DNA of 63,722 nucleotides, counting the filler. It is 7 parts of 7 records of this genome, joined end to end, with 100 filler letters (N's around TTAATTAATTAA, not from the genome) between each part and the next. Parts side by side here need not be neighbours in the genome. Positions count along the whole stretch, not along the records: positions 1 to 27,431 come from SRR2962707_3650; 6 more parts are not named here. One strand, written 5' to 3'. Both the position numbers and the translations under genes were made by a program. Below, piece after piece: positions 1-62,671 of the stretch. The notes under the pieces were generated by a model, which saw nothing but the letters and a program-made list of their open reading frames with translations, was not told the origin of the DNA and made no database searches. Position 1 is the first letter of the stretch. Every line of letters starts with the position of its first letter.

Positions 1-201
1 TGCGCGCAATTCGTCTGCGCCTTCGTCCGCATACGGGCCAGTTTGTGGAACGTTGAAACCAAGAGTAACTGTGCTACCGGTCGGCGCATTGGTGTACCCG
101 GCGTGGCTTCCAGCCGAAAGATACGTTGGCAGAGCAAGGCCAGCACCAGCAATAGCGCCCGTCTTGATCACGCCGCGACGTGTCAGATTGGTCTTGGACA
201 T
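1..201 (-). CDS. ABC transporter substrate-binding protein (branched-chain amino acid/LivJ-like family), Tat-exported; truncated at window start
   Basis: Not in the ORF track. The minus strand from ATG 201 reads MSKTNLTRRGVIKTGAIAGAGLALP...TVTLGFNVPQTGPYADEGADELRA: a twin-arginine signal plus a LivJ-type 'P-x-TGPYA-x-x-G' start. GGAGG RBS upstream. Confidence 0.8.
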   Translation of the reverse strand, partial: MSKTNLTRRGVIKTGAIAGAGLALPTYLSAGSHAGYTNAPTGSTVTLGFNVPQTGPYADEGADELRA

Positions 202-329
202 AAAAATCCTCCCATTTTTTTTGAATTGCGTCGTCGGGCTCCTCTTCCCAACGTCGCTGGCACTTTCGTGCAAAATCATTATTGGAAGGATAAGAAAATA
301 TCGCAACAACAGGCTTAGTTAAAAGAATA

Positions 330-421: not shown

Positions 422-1726
422 GTGGCCCGCGACACATTGACAGGCAGCCGGATCCGCGAAAGGCGGATCATGCTGGGTTTGAAGCAAGCAGATCTCGCGC
501 GGCGCGCTGATATTTCCGCATCCTATCTGAATTTGATCGAGCACAACCGGCGCAGAATCGGCGGCAAGCTGCTTGTTGATATCGCGGATATCCTGGGCGT
601 AGAGCTTGCGATGTTGACCGAAGGGGCAGGTGCAACCCTGTTGGCGACGCTGCGCGAGGCGGCCAGCGACGCGCCCCAGGCCGGTGCAGAGATGGACCGT
701 TTAGACGAATTTGCGGGACGTTTTCCGGGGTGGGCAGCGCTTTTGGCCCAAAGCCGTCGACGTATTGATACGCTGGAGCGAACCGTTTCGGTGCTCAATG
801 ACCGCATGACACATGACCCGCATTTGGCCGAGGCCTTGCATGAAATGCTCACCACGGTAACAGCGATCCGGTCAACCGCGTCAATTTTGGCTGAGCCGGG
901 AGAGATCGAACCCGAATGGCAGGATCGCTTTCACCGTAACATTAACGAAGACAGCGCGCGCCTGGCGGAGTCCAGCCGAGCTCTGGTGCAATATCTTGAT
1001 ACGGTCGACGATGTGTCCAATGACATTACCGCGCCGCAAGAAGAGGTCGAGGCGGTCCTGAACCGCAATGATCATTGTTTTGATGCCCTGGAAACCGGTG
1101 CGTCATCGGCAAAAGAGGTGTCCCGTAAGGAAAGCGCAGGGTTGTCCCATGTCGCCGATCAAATGTTGCAAGCGAGTTTAGACACCTACGCTGCGGATGT
1201 GGCTGCCGTGCCCCGATCTGTTGTTCTAAGTGGTCTGAAAGCGCACGGTTTCGACCCATTTGTTTTGTCAGAGAAATGGGGATGCAGCCCGCCTTTGGCG
1301 ATGCGCCGGATCGCTGCTTTGGCAAAACCCGCTGGGCTCCCGGCCGTTGCATTGACGATCTGTGATGCATCTGGCACGCTGACACACCGGAAAGCCAGCG
1401 ACGACTTGCAGTTTCCGCGTTTCGGGGCGGCGTGCACCATGCTGCCGCTCTATCAGGCTTTGGCGCAACCGGTATTTCCGGTCCAACGTTTGATCGAGCC
1501 GTCCGGTTCCAGTCTGTCTCGATTTATTGCGTATGCATATGCCATGCCGACGATTGCACCCCGCGCAAATCAGGCACCTTTGATCGAAGCACATATGTTG
1601 GCCGTCGCAGTCGAAACTACCTCATCACAAACGGATGTCATCGGTGTCGGAGTGAATTGTGGGATCTGTCCTCGAGAAAACTGCCTTGGGCGACGGGAAC
1701 CATCAATTTTAAGCCAAGGTTTGTGA
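422..1726 (+). CDS. XRE-family short-chain fatty acyl-CoA regulator (ScfR/RamB/PccR-like) with an internal DHp-like segment
   Basis: N-terminal HTH (QADLARRADISASYLNLIEHNRR), 'PQEEVE' motif, 'FPRFGAAC', and a C-terminal CGICPRENCLGRREP Cys cluster typical of ScfR proteins. Confidence 0.85.
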   Translation: MARDTLTGSRIRERRIMLGLKQADLARRADISASYLNLIEHNRRRIGGKLLVDIADILGVELAMLTEGAGATLLATLREAASDAPQAGAEMDRLDEFAGRFPGWAALLAQSRRRIDTLERTVSVLNDRMTHDPHLAEALHEMLTTVTAIRSTASILAEPGEIEPEWQDRFHRNINEDSARLAESSRALVQYLDTVDDVSNDITAPQEEVEAVLNRNDHCFDALETGASSAKEVSRKESAGLSHVADQMLQASLDTYAADVAAVPRSVVLSGLKAHGFDPFVLSEKWGCSPPLAMRRIAALAKPAGLPAVALTICDASGTLTHRKASDDLQFPRFGAACTMLPLYQALAQPVFPVQRLIEPSGSSLSRFIAYAYAMPTIAPRANQAPLIEAHMLAVAVETTSSQTDVIGVGVNCGICPRENCLGRREPSILSQGL

Positions 1727-1829
1727 CTCCGCTTTTGACTTGGGGGCCATGAATGGGGATAAATGGTAAAAACGTGATATGACGATAAGACATATAGCAG
1801 AGTAGCTACGATTGGGGGGGAGACCAAGA

Positions 1830-2198
1830 ATGGCAAAGACAGTCCTGGTGATCGAGGACGAACCGAATATTATTGAAGCCATTAGCTTTATCCTCTCTCG
1901 GGACGGTTGGACGGTAGATACTCATTCCAATGGGCATGATGCGGTAGGGGTTGTTCAATCCAAAAAACCGGATGTGTTGATTTTGGATGTTATGCTGCCG
2001 GGGCGTAGTGGGTATGATATTTTGCGAGAGTTGAGACAGGATTATTCGCCGCTGCAATTGCCCGTTTTGATGCTGACCGCTCGCGGTCAATCGAAAGATC
2101 GGGAATTGGCAGAACAGGCCGGGGTCAACCGATTTATGACCAAGCCTTTCGCAAATGCAGATGTTCTTGAAGCCGTGCGATCCTTGAGTCCCGTATGA
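1830..2198 (+). CDS. Single-domain response regulator (receiver only)
   Basis: VLVIEDE, LILDVMLPG (acceptor Asp), LMLTA and FMTKPF motifs. About 122 aa with no output domain. ATG 1830 follows a G-rich RBS. Confidence 0.9.
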   Translation: MAKTVLVIEDEPNIIEAISFILSRDGWTVDTHSNGHDAVGVVQSKKPDVLILDVMLPGRSGYDILRELRQDYSPLQLPVLMLTARGQSKDRELAEQAGVNRFMTKPFANADVLEAVRSLSPV

Positions 2199-2488
2199 AA
2201 GAAGACCTAGACCGCCCTTCACCGAGCCAAGCCATTTTCGTCGGGCGCCAAACGTACCGGCGTCGGCGGCTTATGGATGCTGCGCGATTTCTGCCGGTAG
2301 TGGGGGTCTTGCTGTGGTGCGTTCCGCTGTTGTGGGGGGACTCTGGCGATGATCAGGCGGTACATGCCTCAAGCGCGACGACCTATATCTTTGTTGTGTG
2401 GACGGTCTTGATTGGCTTTGGCCTATGGATGTCCTTTCCCCTAAAGGCAGTTGATACTGCAGAAGATGGGCGGAGTGATCCTTTATGA
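2195..2488 (+). CDS. Small two-TM membrane protein, translationally coupled to the RR and the kinase
   Basis: RRRRLMDAARFLP followed by two hydrophobic helices. ATGA overlaps at 2195-2198 and 2485-2488. Confidence 0.75.
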   Translation: MKEDLDRPSPSQAIFVGRQTYRRRRLMDAARFLPVVGVLLWCVPLLWGDSGDDQAVHASSATTYIFVVWTVLIGFGLWMSFPLKAVDTAEDGRSDPL

Positions 2489-5175
2489 CGACGCTGAACA
2501 CGCTGGTTGCAGTGTGTGTCGCGTATGTGATCATGCTGTTTTTGGTGGCCTTCGCAGCCGAGCGATCTGCGATTCAAGGGCGCGTTGGGTGGTTACGGCT
2601 CCCGCTTGTCTATACGTTGTCTTTGTCGATCTATTGTACGGCCTGGACGTTTTACGGTGCGGTGGGCAACGCGGCACGGTCAGGGCTTGAATATCTGACG
2701 ATCTATCTTGGTCCATCTTTGGTTATGATTGGCTGGTGGTGGGTATTGCGCAAACTTGTGCGCATTGGCCGGTCGCAGCGGATCACGTCCATTGCAGATT
2801 TGGTCTCTTCCCGCTTTGGCAAATCCAACTTGCTGGCAATTTGTGTGACGATCCTCGCGGTGATCGGAACGACACCCTATATCGCGCTTCAACTTCAGTC
2901 AGTCACCCTGTCTTTTGAGGTTTTTGCTGAAGCGGCTAGTCCGGGCCAACCGCAGGATCAAGGTATCACGGCATTGTACCTTGCCATGGGTTTGGCCCTG
3001 TTTACGGTGATTTTCGGGACCCGCAACCTTGATGCGAATGAGCGCCACCACGGCGTCGTCATGGCCATTGCGGTAGAAGCGGTGGTGAAGCTTTTTGCCC
3101 TTATGGCAGTTGGTGCCTTTGTGGTTTGGGGGGTCGCAGATGGCGTACAGGATACATTGGCGCGGATTGATGCGTCCAAGTTGGGCACATGGAATGTCGA
3201 TGGTGGGCGCTGGTTTGGCCTGATTGTTTTGTCTGCCGCTGCCTTTTTGTGTTTGCCGCGTATGTTTCAGGTCTTGGTCGTCGAAAATGACGACGAAAAT
3301 CATCTGCGCACGGCAAGTTGGGCCTTTCCGCTATACTTGATGCTTATGAGCCTTTTTGTGCTGCCCATCGCCGTTGTTGGGTTGGAATTGATGCCGAACA
3401 ACTCAAACCCAGACACCTTTGTGCTGACCGTACCCTTGTCTCAGGGGGCCAATGGTCTCGCTGTTCTGGCATTTCTGGGTGGTTTTTCATCCGCAACATC
3501 CATGGTTATTGTCGCGGCGATTGCACTGTCCACCATGGTGTCAAACCACATTGTTATGCCGATCTGGTTGCGCGTTACCGGAAACGGCGCATCGGTGTCG
3601 GGCGATGTGCGACACGTGGTGATGCTGGCAAGGCGGGTGTCGATCGTTGGGATCGTGATGTTGGGGTATATGTACTATCGCATGTCCGGCGGGGGCAGTG
3701 CCTTGTCGACCATTGGTCTTGTGTCCTTTGCAGGCGTTGCACAGGTGTTGCCCGTGCTGTTAGGCGGAATTTTCTGGCGGGGCGCGACGCGGATCGGCGC
3801 CTTTGCCGGTTTGACGGTTGGCTTTGGCATTTGGCTGTACACGTCATTCCTACCAAGCTTTGGCATCAGCATTTTCATGTCTGAATCGCTTTTTGCTCAT
3901 GGGCCGTTTGGGCTGAGTTGGCTAAAGCCTCATGCGCTTTTCGGCATTGGCGGGATTGATGTTCTGTTGCACGCCTTGTTGTGGAGCATTTCGCTCAATA
4001 CTGTTGTCTTCTTTGTCGTATCGATTGCCAGCTTTCCATCGCCATTGGAGCGGTTGCAGGGCGCGCAGTTCGTCAACGTTTTTCAGCATTCATTGGATGC
4101 GCGAAGCTGGTCGGCGGGCGTGGCTCAAAGCGAAGACTTGATGATCATGGCCCAACGAATTTTGGGCCCGCGTGAAACCCACGCCTTGTTTGAGCGAGAG
4201 GCCGACAGGCAAGGACGACGCGGAAAGCTACCGGAGCCGTCACCGGATTTCTTACAGTCCTTAGAGCGAGAGCTTTCTGGTTCGGTGGGGGCTGCCACAG
4301 CGCATGCGATGGTCGGGCAGATTGTAGGGGGCACGGCGGTATCCGTCGAAGATCTGATGGCTGTGGCCGATGAAACGGCGCAGATGATGGAGTATTCTTC
4401 GCGGCTGGAAACGCAGTCCGAAGCGTTGAGCCGGACGGCGCGGCAATTGCGCGAAGCCAACCAAAAACTGACTCGCCTTTCGGTGCAAAAAGACGCGTTT
4501 CTAAGCCAGATCAGCCATGAATTGCGCACGCCCATGACCTCAATTCGCGCATTCTCGGAAATTCTGCGCGACAGCACGGGGCTTTCAGAGGAAGAGCAAA
4601 CCAAATATGCGTCGATTATTCATGATGAAGCCATTCGTCTGACACGGCTTTTGGATGATCTTCTGGACATCAGTGTACTGGAAAATGGCCAGGTTAATTT
4701 GAACCTGCGTCATGGGCTGTTGGGCGACGTGTTGGAACGAGCGGCGGCGGCAGCGGCGGCGGATGAAAACGGGGCTAAGTTACGCATTTCCCGCAGCCTG
4801 GAAGATGAGAATTTGATGCTCTATACCGATCTGGATCGGCTCAGCCAGGTGTTTATTAATCTGATCGCAAATGCGCGAAAATATTGCGACGCCGATGTGC
4901 CCGTGCTTCAGATTCGAGTGACGCATTCAAGCGATCAGGTCACTTTGGATTTTGTCGACAATGGGTCTGGAATTTCGCCGGATGCACAAGACGTTGTGTT
5001 TGAAAAATTTGCCCGTGTCAGCGATCAAAAGGCTGGAGGGGCAGGTTTGGGTCTGGCGATTTGCCGCCAGATTTTGACTCGCCTGGGTGGAGAGATCCGG
5101 TATCTCAAGGGAGAACCCGGCGCGGCATTCCGGGTGGAATTGCCGATTGGAATTGCCGAAACGAATGCCGTTTGA
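2485..5175 (+). CDS. SLC5 (sodium:solute symporter)-STAC histidine kinase, CrbS/CbrA/PrlS-like, no PAS or REC domain
   Basis: About 13 TM segments with YTLSLSIYCTAWTFYGAVG and PYIALQL. STAC-like segment (DLMIMAQRILG...ERELSGSVGAATAHAMV). H-box SHELRTP, N-box NLIANARKY, G1 DNGSGI, G2 GAGLGL. Confidence 0.92.
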   Translation: MTTLNTLVAVCVAYVIMLFLVAFAAERSAIQGRVGWLRLPLVYTLSLSIYCTAWTFYGAVGNAARSGLEYLTIYLGPSLVMIGWWWVLRKLVRIGRSQRITSIADLVSSRFGKSNLLAICVTILAVIGTTPYIALQLQSVTLSFEVFAEAASPGQPQDQGITALYLAMGLALFTVIFGTRNLDANERHHGVVMAIAVEAVVKLFALMAVGAFVVWGVADGVQDTLARIDASKLGTWNVDGGRWFGLIVLSAAAFLCLPRMFQVLVVENDDENHLRTASWAFPLYLMLMSLFVLPIAVVGLELMPNNSNPDTFVLTVPLSQGANGLAVLAFLGGFSSATSMVIVAAIALSTMVSNHIVMPIWLRVTGNGASVSGDVRHVVMLARRVSIVGIVMLGYMYYRMSGGGSALSTIGLVSFAGVAQVLPVLLGGIFWRGATRIGAFAGLTVGFGIWLYTSFLPSFGISIFMSESLFAHGPFGLSWLKPHALFGIGGIDVLLHALLWSISLNTVVFFVVSIASFPSPLERLQGAQFVNVFQHSLDARSWSAGVAQSEDLMIMAQRILGPRETHALFEREADRQGRRGKLPEPSPDFLQSLERELSGSVGAATAHAMVGQIVGGTAVSVEDLMAVADETAQMMEYSSRLETQSEALSRTARQLREANQKLTRLSVQKDAFLSQISHELRTPMTSIRAFSEILRDSTGLSEEEQTKYASIIHDEAIRLTRLLDDLLDISVLENGQVNLNLRHGLLGDVLERAAAAAAADENGAKLRISRSLEDENLMLYTDLDRLSQVFINLIANARKYCDADVPVLQIRVTHSSDQVTLDFVDNGSGISPDAQDVVFEKFARVSDQKAGGAGLGLAICRQILTRLGGEIRYLKGEPGAAFRVELPIGIAETNAV

Positions 5176-5252
5176 CCTTGGCGTTTTAAAGCCCTTGGTA
5201 ACCAAATCACGCGATAAGCATCTGGTGGTAAGGCTTTGGGGTATTCTTGGAC

Positions 5253-6374
5253 ATGGTTAATCCGACACCATCCGGTATTTTGGGGCGCAAAGCCAATTCC
5301 GCTCGTCGACAGCATGAAGCGCGGACAATGACCCCAACAAAAGCTTTGCGTCGTGCATTGTCGCGAACGGCTGATCGATTGTGGGATCTCGCGTTGGTCG
5401 TCCAAGGCGTCGAACGGGGCATTTTTGACCAGGAAGAATGCGTTTCGCAGCTGCCAGAGGATGTGATGCTCATTCTGTTGGAAGGGGGAAATAGGGATTT
5501 GGGACTGGCCGCGATCAGTCGTCCGGTTGTTATGGCCCTTGTTGAGGTGCAAACCATTGGTGTCGTGACCGAGTTAACGGCCGACAACCGACCTTTTACT
5601 TATACAGATGCCGCGATGGTCGCACCGTTACTGGATGGGTGTCTGGAAAACCTTGAGCGGCAGCTTGAAGGCCTGCCAGAGCTGGAACTTATGGGCGGAT
5701 ATCGCTTTGGCGCAATGGTTGACGATGCACGAACCGCCGGTCTGGTGCTGGATAGCGCCGAATACAGGGCATTCCGGCTCCTTGCGGATGTGGAAGGCGG
5801 GCGGAAAAACGGAGAGATCCTGTTTTTGTTTCCTGAGTTGCTTAAACAAGAACCGACGGTCGAAGTCGATGACTCTGAAGGGCCGACAAAAGGTCCGTTT
5901 GAAGACTCGCTAAGCCTTGTACCGTTTCACATTCGCGTCCAGTTGCCTTCGATCCGGTTACCTTTGTCCAAGGCGAGCGGCTTGAAGATTGGCGACGTCT
6001 TGCGACTGCCGCCGGATTTCATCGCTTGTGCCGAAGTTCATGCGGGCCATGGTCAGAGGATCGCATCTGGTCGACTGGGGCAGATGAATGGCCATTGGGC
6101 GATCCGTCTTGCTCTACCAGATCACGGACACGACATTTCGGTCGAACCTGATTTAGACTCACAAGCGGAAATGCTAGCACAAGAGGACGTCTTCCCGCTT
6201 GATAAGGCTCGAGGCTTACCTATCGCGGCCCAGGACACCGAAGCGGGTGGGCCGCTCGCGCATAATGTGGCGGCGTTGGAAGATGATCTTGATTTTGATG
6301 GTTTGGATTTGCCCGACAGTCTTTTGGACGTCGCCGGGCAAATTGAAACTGAAGATTGGGCCGAAAATACCTGA
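5253..6374 (+). CDS. FliM/FliN (SpoA-domain) family protein, orphan
   Basis: C-terminal SpoA-like segment (LPLSKASGLKIGDVLRL...GRLGQMNGHWAIRL) and FliM-like 'RPFTYTDAAMV'. Acidic tail. Start uncertain (TTG 5247 or ATG 5253). Confidence 0.7.
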   Translation: MVNPTPSGILGRKANSARRQHEARTMTPTKALRRALSRTADRLWDLALVVQGVERGIFDQEECVSQLPEDVMLILLEGGNRDLGLAAISRPVVMALVEVQTIGVVTELTADNRPFTYTDAAMVAPLLDGCLENLERQLEGLPELELMGGYRFGAMVDDARTAGLVLDSAEYRAFRLLADVEGGRKNGEILFLFPELLKQEPTVEVDDSEGPTKGPFEDSLSLVPFHIRVQLPSIRLPLSKASGLKIGDVLRLPPDFIACAEVHAGHGQRIASGRLGQMNGHWAIRLALPDHGHDISVEPDLDSQAEMLAQEDVFPLDKARGLPIAAQDTEAGGPLAHNVAALEDDLDFDGLDLPDSLLDVAGQIETEDWAENT

Positions 6375-6388
6375 TCCAGAGACCTGAG

Positions 6389-6814
6389 TTAGCCGCCTGA
6401 GCGCGCGGCCAGTGTTGGTGCCAGACCAGCCAGATCGTAACCTGCCTCGGCCGCGTTTTTCAAAATGTCTTCTACCGGCATGGACCCGGACTGGGACAAA
6501 GCCCAAACAACAGTACATCGCGTCCCGCTGGCGCAATAGGCCAAGACAGGGCCCTTAGCCGCGTCAACGAGCTCAAACTGGCGACCAATATTTTCGGGCG
6601 TCATTGTCTGATGCGTCAAGGGAAGTACATGGAAGGCCATTCCGGCAGCTTCAACTGCCGCGCCTATCGCAGCCGCTTGCAAGGGAATGGGGACTTCGCC
6701 ATCTGGGCGGTTACAGATGACATCTGTAACGCCTGCGGCTTGCAATGCTGGGATATCTTCGACCGAAATCTGGGGCGAGACGTGGTACTTGTCTGTGATT
6801 TTTCTCATGTTCAT
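6389..6814 (-). CDS. TIGR01244/DUF442 family sulfurtransferase (phosphatase fold)
   Basis: VSPQI, ICNRPDGE and PVLAYCASGTR motifs. Confidence 0.88.
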   Translation of the reverse strand: MNMRKITDKYHVSPQISVEDIPALQAAGVTDVICNRPDGEVPIPLQAAAIGAAVEAAGMAFHVLPLTHQTMTPENIGRQFELVDAAKGPVLAYCASGTRCTVVWALSQSGSMPVEDILKNAAEAGYDLAGLAPTLAARSGG

Positions 6815-6825
6815 GCTTTCAGGAA

Positions 6826-7260
6826 TTACTCTGCCGGAACCATCCTGTCCAGCCTTGTGCGAAATGCCGGGGCAATTGCCATACCAGAGATCATAGCGGC
6901 GACAAAAATCCAAGTGCTAAGCCCACCAAAACTTAAAGAAGCGATGGCTGGTCCGGGGCATAGCCCTGCCAATCCCCACCCCATGCCAAAAAAGACAGAT
7001 CCAATGACAAGATTGCGGCCCAGTTTGGGTTCCGGAGGCGGTGGGAACGCGCCGCCGACAATCGGGGTTGAACGAAGTTTTGTGACCCGCCAAGCGATGG
7101 CCATCGGAATCATCGCGCCGCCCATGACAAAGGCTAATGTTGGATCCCAATCACCGAAAACATCCAGCCAACCTTGCACTTTTGTTGTGTCAGTCATGCC
7201 AGATATCAATAAGCCCGCGCCAAAGAAGCCACCCGCGATCAAAGCAAAAAGGTTGCGCAT
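6826..7260 (-). CDS. YeeE/YedE family sulfur-compound transporter subunit (PmpB-like)
   Basis: GLLISGMTD...FGDWDPTLAFVMGGA and FGMGWGLAGLCPGPA motifs. Confidence 0.88.
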   Translation of the reverse strand: MRNLFALIAGGFFGAGLLISGMTDTTKVQGWLDVFGDWDPTLAFVMGGAMIPMAIAWRVTKLRSTPIVGGAFPPPPEPKLGRNLVIGSVFFGMGWGLAGLCPGPAIASLSFGGLSTWIFVAAMISGMAIAPAFRTRLDRMVPAE

Positions 7261-7685
7261 CAGATCACTCCCAAAATGTGTCGGAACAAAACGACGGAAA
7301 ACCCGCCGGCACCGATATAAAAAACCGTGGCAACGATGCCGCGTAGGCTTAACCTCGAAATGCCGCAGACCCCGTGGCCCGAGGTGCAGCCATTTGCGAT
7401 CCGCGTTCCAATGCCAACAAACAACCCGGCTGCGATCAGCACGGCGATATTTGACGTCACATGCGTATCAACGCTGTCGTAAAAAGGGATCAGAAGGATG
7501 GGTAATACCACGACCCCAGCCAAAAAGCTGAGCCTTTCCCATTTCGTCGACAGGCCAGATTGATCGACCAACCCGCCAATGATCCCGCTAGCTCCCATGA
7601 TGCGGCCGTTCGCCAAAAGGTATACGGCCCCTCCGGTACCAATCAGCAGACCGCCGATCAGCCCCCAAATCCAGTCTTGTTCCAT
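7260..7685 (-). CDS. YeeE/YedE family sulfur-compound transporter subunit (PmpA-like)
   Basis: GGLLIG...NGRIMGASG and GTRIANGCTSGHGVCGISRLS motifs. Confidence 0.88.
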   Translation of the reverse strand: MEQDWIWGLIGGLLIGTGGAVYLLANGRIMGASGIIGGLVDQSGLSTKWERLSFLAGVVVLPILLIPFYDSVDTHVTSNIAVLIAAGLFVGIGTRIANGCTSGHGVCGISRLSLRGIVATVFYIGAGGFSVVLFRHILGVI

Positions 7686-7746
7686 TCTTGCGTTTCCTTG
7701 TTTTCCCCGGGTGGGGCCGGGCCTTCGCGGGACCCGGTATTGTCGT

Positions 7747-8610
7747 TTAAAGTTTGTTTACGGGCACTTTCAGAAATACGTTCCCGGCCTCATCTGGTTC
7801 GGGCATATTTCCGGCACGCATATTCACCTGAAGTGACGGTATGATCAGCTTTGGCATTGCGAGCGTCGCATCACGTGAGTCCCGCATCGCAACAAAATCT
7901 TCCGCAGACTTGCCGTTGCCGATATGAACGTTGAGCTCCTTTTGCTCGCGCACAGTCGTTTCCCAAGCGTATTGATCACGTCCTGGGGCTTTGTAGTCGT
8001 GGCCGACAAAAATCCGGGTTTCATCTGGAAGGGCCAGGATTCTTTGAATCGACTCAAACAAGGTTTCAGAGGAACCGCCCGGGAAATCGCAACGCGCTGT
8101 GCCAAAATCGGGCATGAACAACGTGTCGCCGACAAAGGCCGCGTCCCCAATAACATAGGTTAAACAAGCGGGCGTGTGGCCAGGCGTGTGCAAAACATCT
8201 CCGCGCATTTGGCCAATGTGAAGGCTGTCTCCGCCTTGGAATAGTTTGTCAAACTGGGATCCATCGCGCTGAAACTCTGTGCCTTCGTTAAAGACTTTGC
8301 CAAACGTGTCCTGCACGACAGTGATCTGATCGCCGATGCCAATTTTTCCACCCAATTTTTGTTGGATATATGGCGCGGCACTTAGGTGATCTGCGTGCAC
8401 ATGGCTTTCTAGCAACCATTCCAGCGTCAGATCGTTTTTCTCTATAAAGTCGATGATCGCATCGGCAGAACGGGTGTCCGTCCGGCCGGAGGCATAGTCG
8501 AAATCCAAAACACTATCGACCACGGCGCAAGCGCTGCCTTCGGGGTCTTTTACAACATAAGAAATGGTGTTTGTGGCTTCGTCAAAAAAGGCTGTGACTT
8601 CTGGTGACAT
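7747..8610 (-). CDS. Persulfide dioxygenase (ETHE1/Blh-like MBL-fold protein)
   Basis: ESHVHADHLSAA, HTPGHT, FVGDTLFMPDFGTARCDFPGG, GHDY and PSLQVNMRAG motifs. Confidence 0.88.
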   Translation of the reverse strand: MSPEVTAFFDEATNTISYVVKDPEGSACAVVDSVLDFDYASGRTDTRSADAIIDFIEKNDLTLEWLLESHVHADHLSAAPYIQQKLGGKIGIGDQITVVQDTFGKVFNEGTEFQRDGSQFDKLFQGGDSLHIGQMRGDVLHTPGHTPACLTYVIGDAAFVGDTLFMPDFGTARCDFPGGSSETLFESIQRILALPDETRIFVGHDYKAPGRDQYAWETTVREQKELNVHIGNGKSAEDFVAMRDSRDATLAMPKLIIPSLQVNMRAGNMPEPDEAGNVFLKVPVNKL

Positions 8611-57865: not shown

Positions 57866-60800
57866 TTGTCCGATACTCATCCCGACCCATTGTTTCCAAT
57901 CCCACGGCCCACCGGGCCTGGTCCGCCGCTTTCAAGACGTGCTAACCCTTTTGTGCGTGCAGGGTCGTTCTTAGACCGCCTCCAACCTGATCCTGTCTGT
58001 TGCTCTTGTTGCTGCTGGTGCTTGGTGTTGACGAACCCATCTCGCGACTATCGTGGTCGGGCTGCAGACTCTGAGTTCATGCCGCATGAAGAGCGTGGTA
58101 TATTTATGTCCAAGCACAGCAAGATTCCAGCGCCGTCATATGACCGCAGCGAGCGGGCTGATTTGCCTCAAACCCTTGCGCTTGCCGCACTTTCCCGCGA
58201 AATTGAGCTTGATGCGCTGGTGGGTGGTGACCTTGATTCAGCAAAGACCCTCTTTTCTTGGTTCGGCGACGAAGGCCACATTAATGGTGGCGATGGAGGA
58301 AGTTACAGTGAGGCCGCATTTGGTGGACAGTTTGACCACTTGTCTCCTGAGCTAGTCAAAGCCTATTGGCGCGATCCAGATAGTCTTTCCAGAATGTGTG
58401 TGCAGCGCATAGACCAAGAGATTGATACTCAACGTGCCACTAAAAAGAAGCGCAACGCTTCAGCTGCCTGGGGTTTCCTTTGGGGCAAACTACAAGGAAC
58501 TTGGGAATTTACAACCGACACTTGGAATGCCCTGCTTACTTCCATGAACTTTGCGAAGAAACGAGCGAAGGATTCCACACACGACAAGTTGAAGAAAGAG
58601 TGGAAGATATTGTTTGACTACGATTCAACTCCGCAAAAGCCAACAGTTAAAGCCTGGTGCACTTTGGGTGCTGTCGGTCTCGTTCAGAGCACAGATGTAG
58701 ACGAGGAGGAAGAGAATGGAGAAGACTCTACGGCGACAGAGGCTCAAGGTCACGTGGCCTTTGAGCAGAGAACAATGGAAGGCAACGAAGTGCTGTCGTT
58801 GGATCAGCAAGGCAGCTCTGACCGCCTTCGCTCCGCCGATGGGTCTCCGCTCGGTAAAATTGCCAAAGGCACTGTGTGCCGACTCTCTATTCCTCGGAGT
58901 ACTGGATCATCTGCGGGTGGGCGTGCAATGCCGCCAACTCGTGCTGTTGATGCTTATGGAAACCCTGACATAGACGACGATGCCTTTGAATGGGTGGCTG
59001 CGAACGTCGTGTCAGTTTCGCGGGCTGGTGACGCAGCGCGCGTTGCATGGCGAAAAGTCACCGTTTCAGCAAAGTACACCTTGACAGGCTTACTGCCTGG
59101 AGCTGAGCACACACTACGAGTGGTTTCTGCCGTGGCGGCCGACCACCGCGGACGTCAGGAGCAAGTCGTGGCGTTTGAAGTCCCGATCAATGATGCAGAC
59201 ACCGAAGGCAGAGCTGAAGGAACTTTCGAGACGGCTGTTTTACGATTGGAAGATTCAGCGCCCGCGGTTTCTGGCAGAAATGCTGGAGGAGACAAGTCGA
59301 CACCTGTTGCACAGCGAATAGTTGGCTTGGTGTTGGAGGTTGCCGAAGTCGAAGGCAGTGTACGGGCAGCAGGGACTGTCGTGAACTCATTCGACTCAAA
59401 AGACGGATTCAGCGACATCGTCGCCCTGATGCAAGGCATGGACGGGCCTGAGCCTGGGAATCGTCAGTACTACGAGAACCACAGCATGTTAGGACCTGCA
59501 CGAGAAGACCTGAATCTCTCACCTGCCTTGACTGACGTCGAACAAGAAAACCCAGAAGCAACCGTGAAAGATCCACGAGAAAAAGCCCGATTGCGGGCCA
59601 GAGCTCGTACCACTGCACAAGTCAGGGCTACGCTAACCGCCTTCAATCGTGCCTGGAGCACTGGCGGTCAGTTGAACGGGCCCAGTTTGCAAGTTTGCTT
59701 TCGTATTTTAATGCAAGCGACAGGGGTGCGCGTGCATCAGCTTTTTGAACTGCACACCACTCCTAATTTTGAGCGTGGTCGAGATCGACGGTGTTGCATT
59801 CTCCCTGCGGGGCCATCGATTGGCCGTGGACGGCGCGGAGTTGCCTTCGCCCCGAAAGTTGCCGAGGCCCTCCTTGAGCCAAAGAGCCTCAGCACAATCG
59901 CGGATTGGCACCTCCCTCTTCAACAGCTGCTGCGTAAACCTGCCTCGAGAGTGCCGTGCAACAACCTTGCTAGCATTTTTATCTTCGTTGTCCCGTTGCT
60001 TGTGCTGGCGCTGCACGCGTGGGTCTTTGATCCGTCACATGACCTATCCATGCACGCCATCTTTGATCCGCTCGTGCATGATACAAACGTCACGGCTGCA
60101 TGCTGTGCGACATGGGATCTTGGGGCAAATGGGCCGCTTGGAGGGCTTCTTTTTGACCAGTATGCACGCTCTTATATCGGCAACACCTCTTCTGTTCAAT
60201 CAATCGGCGAGTGCTGCACCGCATGTGAGTCTTTTGTACGATCCGGCTCACCTCCGTGCGCTGCGGCTGTATTCGATGAGCAAGCTGGGACGTGTCTCTT
60301 CCACGATGCCCGAACAGTTGCTGCTGTGGCAGCAGATGCAGATCATATTGGCGAAGCAGCGGGTGGCGGGCGGCCGATTACACGGCACGGTCGGCGCCTT
60401 GCCTGGATCGTGGTTCCGCGGGGTCCTGCGTCTCGTGCACTTGACTGGCTGGTCCATCGCGTTGCGCGGATGTTGAGCATCCTGCTTGTGTTGCTGCTGT
60501 GGGTCTGGACGCTTGGCCCTGAAAAATGTCGGATGCGACGTGGCCGAACCGGGGAGGGTGGGCGCCGACCGTCCCCTTTGTCGTGTTGGCGCTTGTGGGG
60601 CGTCGGGCTGCGCGAGGCAATGAACGTAATTCCCTCCTCCACTCTGTACGTTAATGAAGAGTACGTTGATGAGGCGCTTGTGGAGCTGCTTGAAGAAGCT
60701 GAAGAACGTCGACGATGGCCCCTAACGTTTCTTGTCGTTCCTCGCAAACCTTTGACGCCAGCTCAACTCCAAGGGTTCACCAAGTCGCGCGCGATCATGT

Positions 60801-62671
60801 CTACAGAAGCAGGCAGCACGACCCTCCCGAGCGCCAGAACTGTTGGTTCGGGCAGTGAGAGAGGCAGGGACGCAGCGCCCTTAACTGCGTCGGTTGACTC
60901 AATGGCGCATTACGCCAGTGTTTTTGAAGAAGCTTTGCAATCAAACCATTTGCGTTTTGTTGGTACTCAGGCACTTGAACCTTTGTCGCAGTGGGAAATC
61001 CCGGCATTGACAGAGCTGCTGATTCTTGTCGCCGTTAAAGTGGACAGCGAACTTTGCGGTCCACCCTCTCGCGGAACGACCAGTGGTGGGAGCGTGCTGT
61101 CTTTGAAGGATCGAGGGTACGACGACGGTATTTCCTACGCACGTGGGCCGCGTTTTGCTGGTGCGGAGTGGGACCCAGTGCCGAACTGTGGAGGATCAAC
61201 CCTCGGCCCGGGGCGGAGGGGCCCACTGCGCAATGTGCACTGGTTCTTGGCAGGCTTACGCCAGCTCGGCGACTTACGGAATCTTCTTGTTGTGTGGATC
61301 GTAGTCTTGCCTCTGCCACGGTTGCTTGCAGGTTTAAACTACATTCCCATCGCTTTTGTGATGTTAGTGGGAGCGTCACTCGCGGCAACATCGCTCATTC
61401 CTCTAGTTGGAGGGGCGACCTCGCCGTCTCTCGACCTGGTCAAGTCAGCTCTATGGTTCGCAGGGCCAGCAATTGCAGCCCTCTTTTGCAGCACACAATT
61501 TCTGTGGTTCGCCGGATTGTGTCTCGTCATATGCAAGTTTCGTTCTGCGGTCGTTGCTATTGTCACGCTGGCAATCTGTGTGAATTTAGCTGTTCCGGGG
61601 TGGCGGGTTGTTTCCGAATTCGGCTCACCACCGCCTGCAGCGGTGGGACTCGATCTTAGCATCCAACAGTCATTCCACGCCGCTGTCGCTGCAGCGACTG
61701 CGAGTGTGGAGATCAATGCAACCGACAATGCAGCAGTTCCTGCATGGGCAACGAACTCTGGGGGTGCCTTCTTTGTCCCGTCCCCGTTGCAAGCAGAATG
61801 GTTGAATGCTCATGCAGTTCAGTTTGTCCCATCATTCAATGCGTTGGCTGGCAGCCAAGTGGCGCTTGACCCGACAGATCCAGAGTTAGTGTGCACCGTG
61901 CCAACGATTGACTTGGGCACCACCTCTGGCCGCGAGAGCCCGACCACCGTGAGAAATGGATGCACGGTGGATGCCTTCGCTGCGACGTTGCTAAAAACAA
62001 AGGAATCCATGCAGGGACGGCGCAGCTTGAACAGCATAGGCTGCGAGTCGTGCTACGGTGCTGAGCGAAGTGCTGATCAGTGTTGCAACACTTGCACCGA
62101 CCTGCAATCCGCCTATTCCGAACTGGGCTGGGATGCAACACTAATTTCGGGCATGGGCTCTCTTCAGTGCCGCCGGGAGCTTTTTTTCAGGGAACCCAGC
62201 GGCGCAGACACGGCAGCCAGATCCCGGGGTGGGATTTCACGCAGCACACAAGTAACTCATTTGCTGGGTTGGCGCGATCCCTTGAGGCTTGCGCCTCGCG
62301 CTGCCGCCCACATGTGGGCGAAACTTGTTCAACCTGCTTCACATCGGGCTGGTTTGTTGTTGGTGTCACCCGCTAGTGGTTTATCCGAAAACCAGGTTGC
62401 CTGGCTGGGCAATTTTATTAAAGAGTGCCATGAGTTGCGTGAACAGCCGGCGACGGCCAGTGAAGTTTGTGCGGACTCCGAATCGTGTGAATCGCCAAGT
62501 TCAGCTTTTTGTGATGTCAACCAAATTTCTGCATGGGCTGTTCGTGTCCAGGATCAAGGTGGGGACGCAAAACCACAAAGTTACTGGGACGAATCTTATG
62601 GCAGTGGCCGCGACGGAGACTTTCAAAGGGCTCTAACTGGTTTCCTCAACGGTGCGCGCTATTGCCCGTGA
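57866..62671 (+). CDS. Large eukaryotic multi-pass membrane protein with FN3-like, PAN/Apple-like and Erv46/ERGIC3-type Cys-rich modules (true start unclear)
   Basis: 4.8-kb uninterrupted frame. YTLTGLLPGAEHTLRV, ECCTAC...CAAAVFD...TCLFH, several hydrophobic helices, and CESCYGAE...CCNTCTDLQSAYSELGW...QCRRE. Confidence 0.75.
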   Translation: MSDTHPDPLFPIPRPTGPGPPLSRRANPFVRAGSFLDRLQPDPVCCSCCCWCLVLTNPSRDYRGRAADSEFMPHEERGIFMSKHSKIPAPSYDRSERADLPQTLALAALSREIELDALVGGDLDSAKTLFSWFGDEGHINGGDGGSYSEAAFGGQFDHLSPELVKAYWRDPDSLSRMCVQRIDQEIDTQRATKKKRNASAAWGFLWGKLQGTWEFTTDTWNALLTSMNFAKKRAKDSTHDKLKKEWKILFDYDSTPQKPTVKAWCTLGAVGLVQSTDVDEEEENGEDSTATEAQGHVAFEQRTMEGNEVLSLDQQGSSDRLRSADGSPLGKIAKGTVCRLSIPRSTGSSAGGRAMPPTRAVDAYGNPDIDDDAFEWVAANVVSVSRAGDAARVAWRKVTVSAKYTLTGLLPGAEHTLRVVSAVAADHRGRQEQVVAFEVPINDADTEGRAEGTFETAVLRLEDSAPAVSGRNAGGDKSTPVAQRIVGLVLEVAEVEGSVRAAGTVVNSFDSKDGFSDIVALMQGMDGPEPGNRQYYENHSMLGPAREDLNLSPALTDVEQENPEATVKDPREKARLRARARTTAQVRATLTAFNRAWSTGGQLNGPSLQVCFRILMQATGVRVHQLFELHTTPNFERGRDRRCCILPAGPSIGRGRRGVAFAPKVAEALLEPKSLSTIADWHLPLQQLLRKPASRVPCNNLASIFIFVVPLLVLALHAWVFDPSHDLSMHAIFDPLVHDTNVTAACCATWDLGANGPLGGLLFDQYARSYIGNTSSVQSIGECCTACESFVRSGSPPCAAAVFDEQAGTCLFHDARTVAAVAADADHIGEAAGGGRPITRHGRRLAWIVVPRGPASRALDWLVHRVARMLSILLVLLLWVWTLGPEKCRMRRGRTGEGGRRPSPLSCWRLWGVGLREAMNVIPSSTLYVNEEYVDEALVELLEEAEERRRWPLTFLVVPRKPLTPAQLQGFTKSRAIMSTEAGSTTLPSARTVGSGSERGRDAAPLTASVDSMAHYASVFEEALQSNHLRFVGTQALEPLSQWEIPALTELLILVAVKVDSELCGPPSRGTTSGGSVLSLKDRGYDDGISYARGPRFAGAEWDPVPNCGGSTLGPGRRGPLRNVHWFLAGLRQLGDLRNLLVVWIVVLPLPRLLAGLNYIPIAFVMLVGASLAATSLIPLVGGATSPSLDLVKSALWFAGPAIAALFCSTQFLWFAGLCLVICKFRSAVVAIVTLAICVNLAVPGWRVVSEFGSPPPAAVGLDLSIQQSFHAAVAAATASVEINATDNAAVPAWATNSGGAFFVPSPLQAEWLNAHAVQFVPSFNALAGSQVALDPTDPELVCTVPTIDLGTTSGRESPTTVRNGCTVDAFAATLLKTKESMQGRRSLNSIGCESCYGAERSADQCCNTCTDLQSAYSELGWDATLISGMGSLQCRRELFFREPSGADTAARSRGGISRSTQVTHLLGWRDPLRLAPRAAAHMWAKLVQPASHRAGLLLVSPASGLSENQVAWLGNFIKECHELREQPATASEVCADSESCESPSSAFCDVNQISAWAVRVQDQGGDAKPQSYWDESYGSGRDGDFQRALTGFLNGARYCP

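Follow-up and report, generated by a model that had tools for sequence, protein, structure and literature searches.

A DHp domain inserted in an ScfR transcription factor as a candidate docking site for a receiver-only response regulator

Introduction

How might a response regulator that consists of a receiver domain alone pass its signal on to DNA? This question is raised by a four-gene locus at positions 422–5175 of a 63,722-nucleotide stretch of DNA (hereafter, the window), which comprises seven joined parts, the first of them (1–27,431) from record SRR2962707_3650. All four genes lie on the plus strand, in the arrangement given by a first-pass annotation. They encode an ScfR/XRE regulator of 434 residues (422–1726), composed of a helix-turn-helix (HTH) domain, a helical linker, an insert resembling a DHp (dimerization and histidine phosphotransfer) domain, a shortened DIII, a GAF-like domain and Fe-S cysteines; a receiver-only response regulator of 122 residues with Asp53 at 1986–1988 (1830–2198); a small two-helix membrane protein (2195–2488), the stop codon of which overlaps the kinase start; and an SLC5 transporter-like histidine kinase of 896 residues without PAS or REC domains, with His678 at 4516–4518 (2485–5175). 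The annotation proposed a His-Asp-His phosphorelay ending on His140 of the regulator or, as a second option, allosteric docking of the receiver on the regulator. From sequence comparisons and structural models, we consider it somewhat probable that the regulator is switched by docking of the phosphorylated receiver on its insert, in the manner of DivK on DivL, and that this controls a divergent operon for an ABC transporter and acs.

The insert of the regulator is related to kinase DHp domains

Residues 132–181 of the regulator aligned without gaps to residues 670–719 of the kinase with 15 identities among 50 positions, and with His140 (codon 839–841) opposite His678, which confirms the similarity that had originally been noticed. 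Taken alone, the pair gave a weak signal: pairwise BLASTP returned E = 0.004, and the window regulator scored 14.5 bits (E = 0.037) against Pfam HisKA, under the cut-off of 26.9 bits. The HisKA search thus failed for the window protein itself, but four of six scanned orthologs passed it (32.7–38.7 bits), one fell just under (24.4 bits) and one had no match; a canonical PccR-like control had no HisKA match in the same scan. A profile of the segment built from 39 sequences found the DHp of HK853 as its top PDB match (E = 4.7e-5), with DivL lower (E = 0.024). AlphaFold predicted a helical hairpin formed by residues 133–157 and 164–199, and Foldseek searches with the cut-out segment placed kinase or hybrid-kinase cores in all of the top nine rows, with no match reaching E = 0.001. 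The whole regulator model returned only PrpR, IrrE and HTH proteins in Foldseek, and a search of the ESM Atlas gave unnamed clusters only. On the family evidence, the insert is a genuine DHp domain.

The insert (residues 132–199; 815–1018, plus strand) includes His140, Thr144 and the invariant residues Ile155, Phe170 and Leu181. Its size is approximately 65–70 residues and it is absent from canonical ScfRs; five canonical PccR-like ScfR paralogs, drawn as controls from the genomes of relatives, were without the segment (69 alignment columns). It follows DII and precedes the first helix of DIII, which in MtPrpR has been proposed to transmit the ligand signal (PMC6765138). Two long canonical ScfRs (L372 and L373) were considered as overlooked carriers and were rejected, having no insert.

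We then compared the insert profile with other proteins of the same genomes, including a class sample of 301 evenly drawn alphaproteobacterial genomes, 81 of which have ScfR matches (114 matches in total). The next-best match was a kinase-length open reading frame (ORF) in every genome having both, and coincided with the short SLC5 kinase in the class sample. The short SLC5 kinase is therefore the most likely source of the insert. One ortholog (P0013) was named 'sensory histidine kinase CreC' by its source, and a weak CreC match of the window regulator covers the insert, which probably caused this mis-naming.

The insert occurs together with the receiver and the kinase

Among the close loci (the best 80 loci from named genomes, nearly all of the Roseobacter group), the receiver gene adjoined the regulator gene in 80 of 80 and the kinase gene lay within 2.3 kb of it in 79, the contig of the 80th ending first. 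Of 30 class-wide loci, 27 also had a receiver gene in the retrieved sequence, and the cassette was found in Neorhizobium and Paracoccus records. Insert-bearing ScfRs were detected in 35 of the 301 class genomes, and each of these 35 has a short, non-hybrid, REC-less SLC5 kinase. This kinase was found in 46 of the 301 class genomes overall, and in only 4 of the 46 genomes that have ScfRs without the insert. The distance between regulator and kinase was at most 5 kb in 26 genomes and at most 12 kb in 30, and the kinase lay elsewhere in the genome in five; thus, even unlinked insert-bearing ScfRs were accompanied by the kinase (5/5). A phylum sample of 401 genomes gave a similar picture, with the short kinase in 36 of 36 genomes with an insert-bearing ScfR and within 5 kb in 32 (of the 36, seven also belong to the class sample).

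As the annotation had stated, the response regulator is receiver-only: a Pfam scan found Response_reg (residues 5–117) as its sole domain. Likewise, 43 receivers from related kinase loci were receiver-only, ending 0–22 residues past the domain, and an alignment of 37 receivers showed no variation at Asp53, Lys105 and the α1 residues Asp10, Glu11 and Ile14. No other DNA-binding response regulator was found in the regulator cassette in the close and class-wide loci.

A second output protein carries a similar segment

Short kinases without an insert-bearing ScfR were usually found beside the same type of receiver and a protein of approximately 700 residues, in which an N-terminal hydrophobic part and a PAS domain precede the DHp-like segment, which is followed by one more domain and by a DEDDh exonuclease domain. 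This exonuclease-type partner was present in 11 of the 301 class genomes, always with a short kinase. It also lay beside the kinase at 18 of 25 phylum loci without the ScfR form, and contig edges cut off several of the other seven. Altogether, 45 of the 46 class genomes with a short kinase have a DHp-bearing non-kinase partner (ScfR in 35, exonuclease type in 11, both in 1). In G091, both outputs surround one receiver and one kinase.

The DHp-like segment of the exonuclease-type partners had His in 0 of 49 sequences (Glu in 33) and also lacked Thr at position H+4 (positions are numbered relative to the His), and it retained Ala or Ser at H+11 and Glu or Asp at H+14 in 49 of 49 and Arg at H+10 in 33 of 49. 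The first exonuclease motif was intact in all 49. A module that serves a partner devoid of the His cannot rely on phosphotransfer to it, which is the strongest argument for docking as the mechanism common to both outputs. The profile of the exonuclease-type partner matched kinase cores beyond the DHp.

Examples of the exonuclease-type gene are L153:5259-7409, L161:1575-3707, L166:8696-10795, L216:5708-7816 and L349:3534-5660, among others. The sole class genome with a short kinase and no DHp-bearing partner is G059 (L159/L371), in which a bare receiver and a LuxR-type regulator flank the kinase, the latter directly behind it.

A shared docking face and a model of the complex

The docking face is nearly invariant among the short SLC5 kinases, of which 43 of 44 combine Arg at H+10 with Ser or Ala at H+11. 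The combination recurs in 29 of 35 inserts of the ScfRs and in 10 of 11 of the exonuclease type. The corresponding figures were 0 of 8 for hybrid SLC5 kinases and 2 of 65 for other HisKA kinases, the latter being controls from three genomes in which 11 of 79 loci were not parsed. Within the ScfR inserts, the polar surface residues Arg+10, Ser+11 (Ser151) and Glu+14 were each kept in 30–31 of 35 orthologs (30 for Glu+14, 31 for Ser151), and Ile155 (H+15), Phe170 and Leu181 in 35 of 35, compared with 28 of 35 for the His. Positions H+8, +11, +14 and +15 are among those that switch partner specificity in CrdS (PMC3892784).

We modeled two chains of the insert (residues 104–201) with the receiver and obtained an ipSAE of 0.70, compared with 0.01 for the best control; the mark used was attained by 51 of 78 solved pairs and 2 of 108 mismatched pairs. 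At least 93% of the contacts agreed between runs, and the partner pLDDT was at least 85. The modeled interface joins regulator residues 139–155, 166–177 and 181–189 to α1 and the β5–α5 loop of the receiver and is of the canonical DHp–receiver type. Ser151, Ile155, Phe170 and Leu181 all touch the receiver in this model, and His140 lies within the interface. Interface columns were more conserved than the rest (0.60 versus 0.44, P = 0.011), but they largely coincide with helix 1. Together with the DHp homology and the gene linkage, the model makes the second option of the annotation, in which the receiver docks allosterically on the regulator, plausible.

Conservation of His140 and alternative roles of the insert

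His140 was invariant in 121 of 121 close homologs, and a His was present at this position in 30 of 30 best phylum matches and in 144 of 150 cluster representatives (Tyr in 3, Phe in 2 and Arg in 1), which were the top scorers among 603 at E 1e-10 and are thus biased toward the His-bearing consensus. Among the class-wide orthologs, the residue was His in 28 of 35 (Phe in 3, Tyr in 2 and Gln in 2). A first, Roseobacter-only profile found 31 class orthologs and a broader search found 35; because the four divergent orthologs added in this way are all His-less, conservation judged on close homologs alone would mislead. A FastTree analysis of 40 insert-bearing and five canonical sequences placed His-less members in at least six separate places, with replacements mostly by Tyr or Phe, in a tree of which several inner nodes are weakly supported and two His-less sequences are fragments. 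Two Tyr-bearing representatives formed the sister group of the window protein, and at L151 Tyr replaces the His within a complete regulator–receiver–kinase cassette. The invariance of His140, which the annotation had proposed to check, therefore holds for close homologs, but not across the class or the representatives, with several separate losses.

The surrounding H-box has diverged further. An acid was present at H+1 in 8 of 35 inserts (7 of the 28 that bear His), Arg or Lys at H+3 in 5 of 35 and Pro at H+5 in 0 of 35. Position H+4 was occupied by Thr, Ser or Asn in 34 of 35 (28 of the 28 His-bearing; Thr or Asn in 27 of 35 and Ser in 7 of 35). The short kinases have H-E-x-R-T-P in all 33 parsed sequences. 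The invariant HisKA H-box (His, acid at +1, Thr or Asn at +4 and Pro at +5) is consequently not a feature of the insert family; the window regulator keeps His, Glu+1 and Thr+4 and is missing Pro+5.

Several of these and other observations weigh against docking of the receiver as the switch. The His is kept in the close homologs, the representatives and the phylum matches to a greater extent than pure docking would obviously need, and the window protein itself retains His, Glu+1 and Thr+4. The regulator and kinase of the window are identical at only one of the four positions H+8, +11, +14 and +15 (Ile+15), so that the Roseobacter docking face has drifted. When the parsed kinases of one Ruegeria genome were ordered by similarity in helix 1, the cognate kinase came only 4th of 14 (1st of 28 and 1st of 26 in two other genomes). 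The complex may have passed the mark by likeness to solved HK853–RR468 complexes, its controls included no other receiver, and our own alignments were not used as input. In addition, the common docking residues could partly reflect descent from the kinase, and the co-occurrence counts are uncorrected for kinship.

A phosphorelay, in which the receiver phosphorylates His140 and the phospho-His regulator is the active or inactive species, would account for the intact His140, Glu141 and Thr144 of the window protein, for the frequency of the His among close homologs and representatives, and for the location of His140 in the modeled interface. Transfer of phosphate from an Asp back to a DHp His is known chemistry, and the His-less orthologs could be derived forms that retain docking only. 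However, 7 of 35 class-wide orthologs have another residue in place of the His, one of them in the intact cassette of L151, as do the two sister representatives; only 7 of the 28 His-bearing orthologs have the acid at H+1 and none of the 35 has Pro+5. The parallel exonuclease output has no His at all. An obligate phospho-accepting His such as that of ChpT or Spo0B is likewise not a property of the family, since 7 of 35 orthologs and 6 of 150 representatives carry a different residue there, although it is present in the window protein. We therefore regard the relay, which was the principal proposal of the annotation and is weakened by these losses, as possible but improbable.

The insert might instead serve mainly as a phosphatase or sink for the phosphorylated receiver, which would reset or dampen the signal and couple the level or ligand state of the regulator back to the two-component system. 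In HisKA kinases, the residue at H+1 is required for kinase activity only and Thr or Asn at H+4 for phosphatase activity only (PMC3510030), and the inserts match the latter role in keeping Thr, Ser or Asn at H+4 in 34 of 35 and the acid at H+1 in 8 of 35. However, with no other DNA-binding response regulator in the cassette, this role would leave the receiver without an output in most genomes; moreover, the exonuclease-type insert has neither His nor Thr+4, and Ser occupies H+4 in 7 of 35 ScfR inserts. As a principal function this seems quite unlikely, but it can coexist with docking, and the docking, relay and phosphatase readings can overlap in general.

We consider it very unlikely that the insert is only a dimerization element captured from the neighboring kinase gene, with the receiver signaling elsewhere. 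DHp domains serve for dimerization, the three invariant residues, all hydrophobic, might belong to the core, and the short regulator form has lost the DIII β-sheet that MtPrpR uses for subunit contacts. However, the kinase co-occurs strictly even when unlinked (5/5), the polar surface of Arg+10, Ser+11 and Glu+14 is kept, and a second, unrelated protein has the same face beside the same kinase and receiver. DHp-type phosphotransferases exist, and a FliMN_C gene lies behind the window kinase, as it does in 74 of 80 close loci. Nevertheless, a ChpT/Spo0B-type shuttle to a further response regulator, or a CheY-like action of the receiver on this FliM/FliN protein, is the least likely of the alternatives, since several lineages do without the His, the cassette has no second conserved receiver, and the FliMN gene was found in only two of the loci L123–L182 and in none of L346–L377.

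Proposed mechanism and comparison with known systems

If the receiver docks on the insert, the cassette would be a two-component system with its output domain in a separate protein. The SLC5 kinase and the small membrane subunit would sense a short-chain carboxylate, probably acetate, and the kinase would autophosphorylate at His678. Phosphate would then pass to Asp53 of the bare receiver, as the intact motifs and the linkage suggest. The receiver is modeled to dock, by its usual kinase-binding face, on the DHp four-helix bundle of two regulator subunits. Because the insert sits between the helix leaving the DNA-binding domain and the signal-transmitting core helix, docking would reposition the HTH domains, and this may switch on the divergent ABC transporter–acs operon, the direction being guessed from CrbS/R. 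His140 and Thr144 might help to bind or slowly hydrolyze the phosphorylated receiver, and phosphorylation of the regulator would be unnecessary for the switch.

The closest precedent is DivK–DivL of Caulobacter, in which a true kinase phosphorylates a single-domain receiver that then docks on the catalytically inactive DHp of a second protein; DivL has Tyr at the His position and binds phosphorylated DivK without catalysis (PMC4211667). As in DivL, the DHp of the regulator is co-inherited with a single-domain receiver (80/80 close and 27/30 class-wide loci). However, DivL is a whole PAS–DHp–CA pseudokinase acting on another kinase (PMC4211667), whereas the regulator has an isolated DHp in a DNA-binding protein, no CA domain and a His that is usually kept. 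The exonuclease-type partner fits a DivL-type pseudokinase better than the regulator does, given its His count of 0/49 and its kinase-core match beyond the DHp.

The DHp-type phosphotransferases ChpT and Spo0B have a DHp without autokinase activity that meets a receiver, and they need their His and hand the phosphate to a second receiver. PRD-containing regulators are transcription factors under phospho-His control and are phosphorylated by the PTS in a different fold.

The regulator resembles the ScfRs MtPrpR (PMC6765138), Paracoccus RamB (PMC10370305) and PccR in its XRE HTH, its DIII/GAF-like core and its four Fe-S cysteines, and also in its short-chain fatty-acid gene context and its candidate TTTG(C/T)AAA-like boxes. 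Unlike these, it has a DHp insert between DII and DIII and a partial deletion of DIII, and has lost CoA contacts. The cassette in turn resembles the CbrXA/CbrB, CrbS/CrbR (MxtR/ErdR) and RpuS/RpuR systems in having an SLC5-like sensor fused to a HisKA kinase, a small upstream membrane peptide and a link to acs and carboxylate uptake. Unlike those systems, the window kinase is without PAS and REC and has a docking face that differs from that of hybrid SLC5 kinases (0/8), and the response regulator has no output domain, the outputs being separate DHp-bearing proteins.

Literature searches, from which most subscription papers were out of reach, turned up neither an ScfR with a DHp nor this circuit, and term matches within PMC5715377, PMC9100948, PMC12632250 and bioRxiv 10.64898/2026.02.27.708494 showed no mention. 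A similar gene linkage is noted in PMC10370305 for one ScfR gene, Pden_1785, a possible ortholog that is clustered with a two-component system and was left unstudied there. CheY–FliM and DivK–DivL are given as examples of single-domain regulators (PMC12471899). The wiring was not found described for any DNA-binding regulator. Given the DivK–DivL precedent, the logic of receiver docking counts as known; what appears to be new is a transcription factor with a lone DHp as its input.

The targets of receiver-only response regulators are mostly unknown, and the cassette would name a predictable class of them, i.e. non-kinase proteins with a copy of the cognate kinase DHp and the same face. It would carry the DivK–DivL logic beyond a single cell-cycle pseudokinase, to a transcription factor and to an enzyme, and could be the system by which Roseobacters and many other Alphaproteobacteria (35/301 genomes) regulate acetate or carboxylate use in place of a CrbR-type regulator. 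The mechanism is open to direct test, since there are natural regulators with Tyr, Phe or Gln instead of the His and regulators both with and without a CoA pocket. An unlikely extension is that the DHp of the kinase became a portable input module through which one bare receiver controls unrelated effectors, a transcription factor in this locus and a membrane-bound protein with a DEDDh exonuclease domain elsewhere, and that, in His-bearing ScfRs including that of the window, the receiver also phosphorylates the His; if true, a His-phosphorylated ScfR would be a transcription factor that terminates a His-Asp-His relay.

Ligand site and Fe-S cysteines of the regulator

Pfam assigned HTH_3 (residues 11–63, 44.4 bits) and ScfRs (residues 305–429, 39.2 bits) to the regulator, both above cut-off, and its best Foldseek matches were MtPrpR (E = 1.5e-8). 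The acyl-CoA/Fe-S input proposed by the annotation fared differently in its two parts. Four predicted [4Fe-4S] ligands, Cys338, Cys413, Cys416 and Cys421 (1433–1684, plus strand), align to MtPrpR Cys363, 447, 450 and 455, and these cysteines (one in the GAF-like domain plus C-X2-C-X4-C) were kept in 35 of 35 class-wide orthologs and 120–121 of 121 close homologs. The CoA-binding residues, on the other hand, are deleted or replaced: the stretch bearing MtPrpR Lys217, Trp232 and Phe240 is missing, and His319, Arg338, Lys347 and Lys410 correspond to Arg295, Ile313, His322 and Leu387, respectively. No Peptidase_M78 match was found in the regulator by Pfam, and a complete, IrrE-N-like DIII with its CoA pocket was not detected. 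The CoA pocket thus looks lost from the sequence of the window regulator, so that another input is to be expected, and in the Roseobacter form the receiver has probably replaced acyl-CoA in this role. Most of the longer orthologs (520–540 residues) keep the CoA-site Phe, His, Arg and Lys; a dual input, with sites for both the receiver and acyl-CoA, is therefore plausible for them and unlikely in the window protein.

Among insert-bearing ScfRs (L127, L130, L131, L135, L146, L123, L124 and the window), DIII shrinks stepwise as the proteins shorten from approximately 530 to 430 residues; the CoA-contact residues are lost along with it and the Fe-S cysteines stay.

The kinase and its small membrane partner

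Residues 4–460 of the kinase matched the CbrA SLC5-STAC structure 10ED (E = 1.3e-67), and Pfam and NCBIfam gave no transporter match in this N-terminal part. Pfam identified HisKA (669–735) and HATPase_c (782–888) and no REC, as the annotation had said. Residues of approximately 545–620, which we take to resemble STAC, are common to hybrid relatives, and no library or PDB match covered them. Described SLC5-STAC kinases have a PAS domain between STAC and DHp (PMC7918813); library scans gave no PAS match in the window kinase, the DHp of which, starting at residue 669, leaves no room for one. An ORF with two transmembrane helices was found immediately upstream of 43 of 44 related short kinases. 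By analogy with CbrX, a helical hairpin bound to the SLC5 domain of CbrA (PMC13488458), the ORF at 2195–2488 is a probable CbrX-like subunit of the kinase.

The candidate target operon and neighboring genes

The 5΄ part of a gene for an ABC-transporter substrate-binding protein (1–201, minus strand; start codon assigned from the sequence) diverges from the regulator and is the first gene of the likely target operon. Such an operon was found next to the regulator at 72 of 80 close loci and at 24 of 30 class-wide loci. In L016 its last gene encodes an acetate–CoA ligase; a ligase gene of this type was visible at 21 of 80 loci, many of the 80 stopping short of that position. Activation of acs for acetate use is known from CrbS/R, a hybrid relative (PMC5715377).

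A candidate σ70-like promoter of the operon (278–306, minus strand) was the sole match in 150–500, at 9 of 12 positions; since shuffled sequences gave 0.4 ± 0.6 matches, it is weak alone, and its −35 and −10 elements coincide with blocks conserved over 73 aligned upstream regions. Conserved TGTAAA boxes lie upstream of this promoter-like site. Conserved columns define the candidate operator boxes TTTGTAAA (332–339) and TCTGTAAA (364–371), 32 bp apart (332–371, no strand assigned). Two pattern matches were found exactly 32 bp apart in 36 of the 73 regions and 31 bp apart in one, and the other 36 had fewer than two matches. At least one TGTAAA box was present in 22 of 23 distant intergenic regions; both counts are uncorrected for chance. 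The pair resembles the TTTGCAAA site of MtPrpR (PMC6765138) and, lying in an AT-rich region, is regarded as candidate operators only.

The contigs of L001, L010, L011, L017–L019, L022, L023, L030 and L034 end approximately 5.7 kb upstream of the regulator, behind the ABC operon, which suggests a repeated element at this distance. The FliM/FliN-family gene mentioned above occupies 5247–6374 of the window, directly behind the kinase. A 1572-residue ORF with only a short, doubtful Pfam match lies at 57953–62668 (plus strand). At 6389–8610 (minus strand), the translations alone point to genes that we presume to encode a persulfide dioxygenase of the metallo-β-lactamase fold, two YeeE/YedE-type membrane proteins and a small sulfurtransferase.

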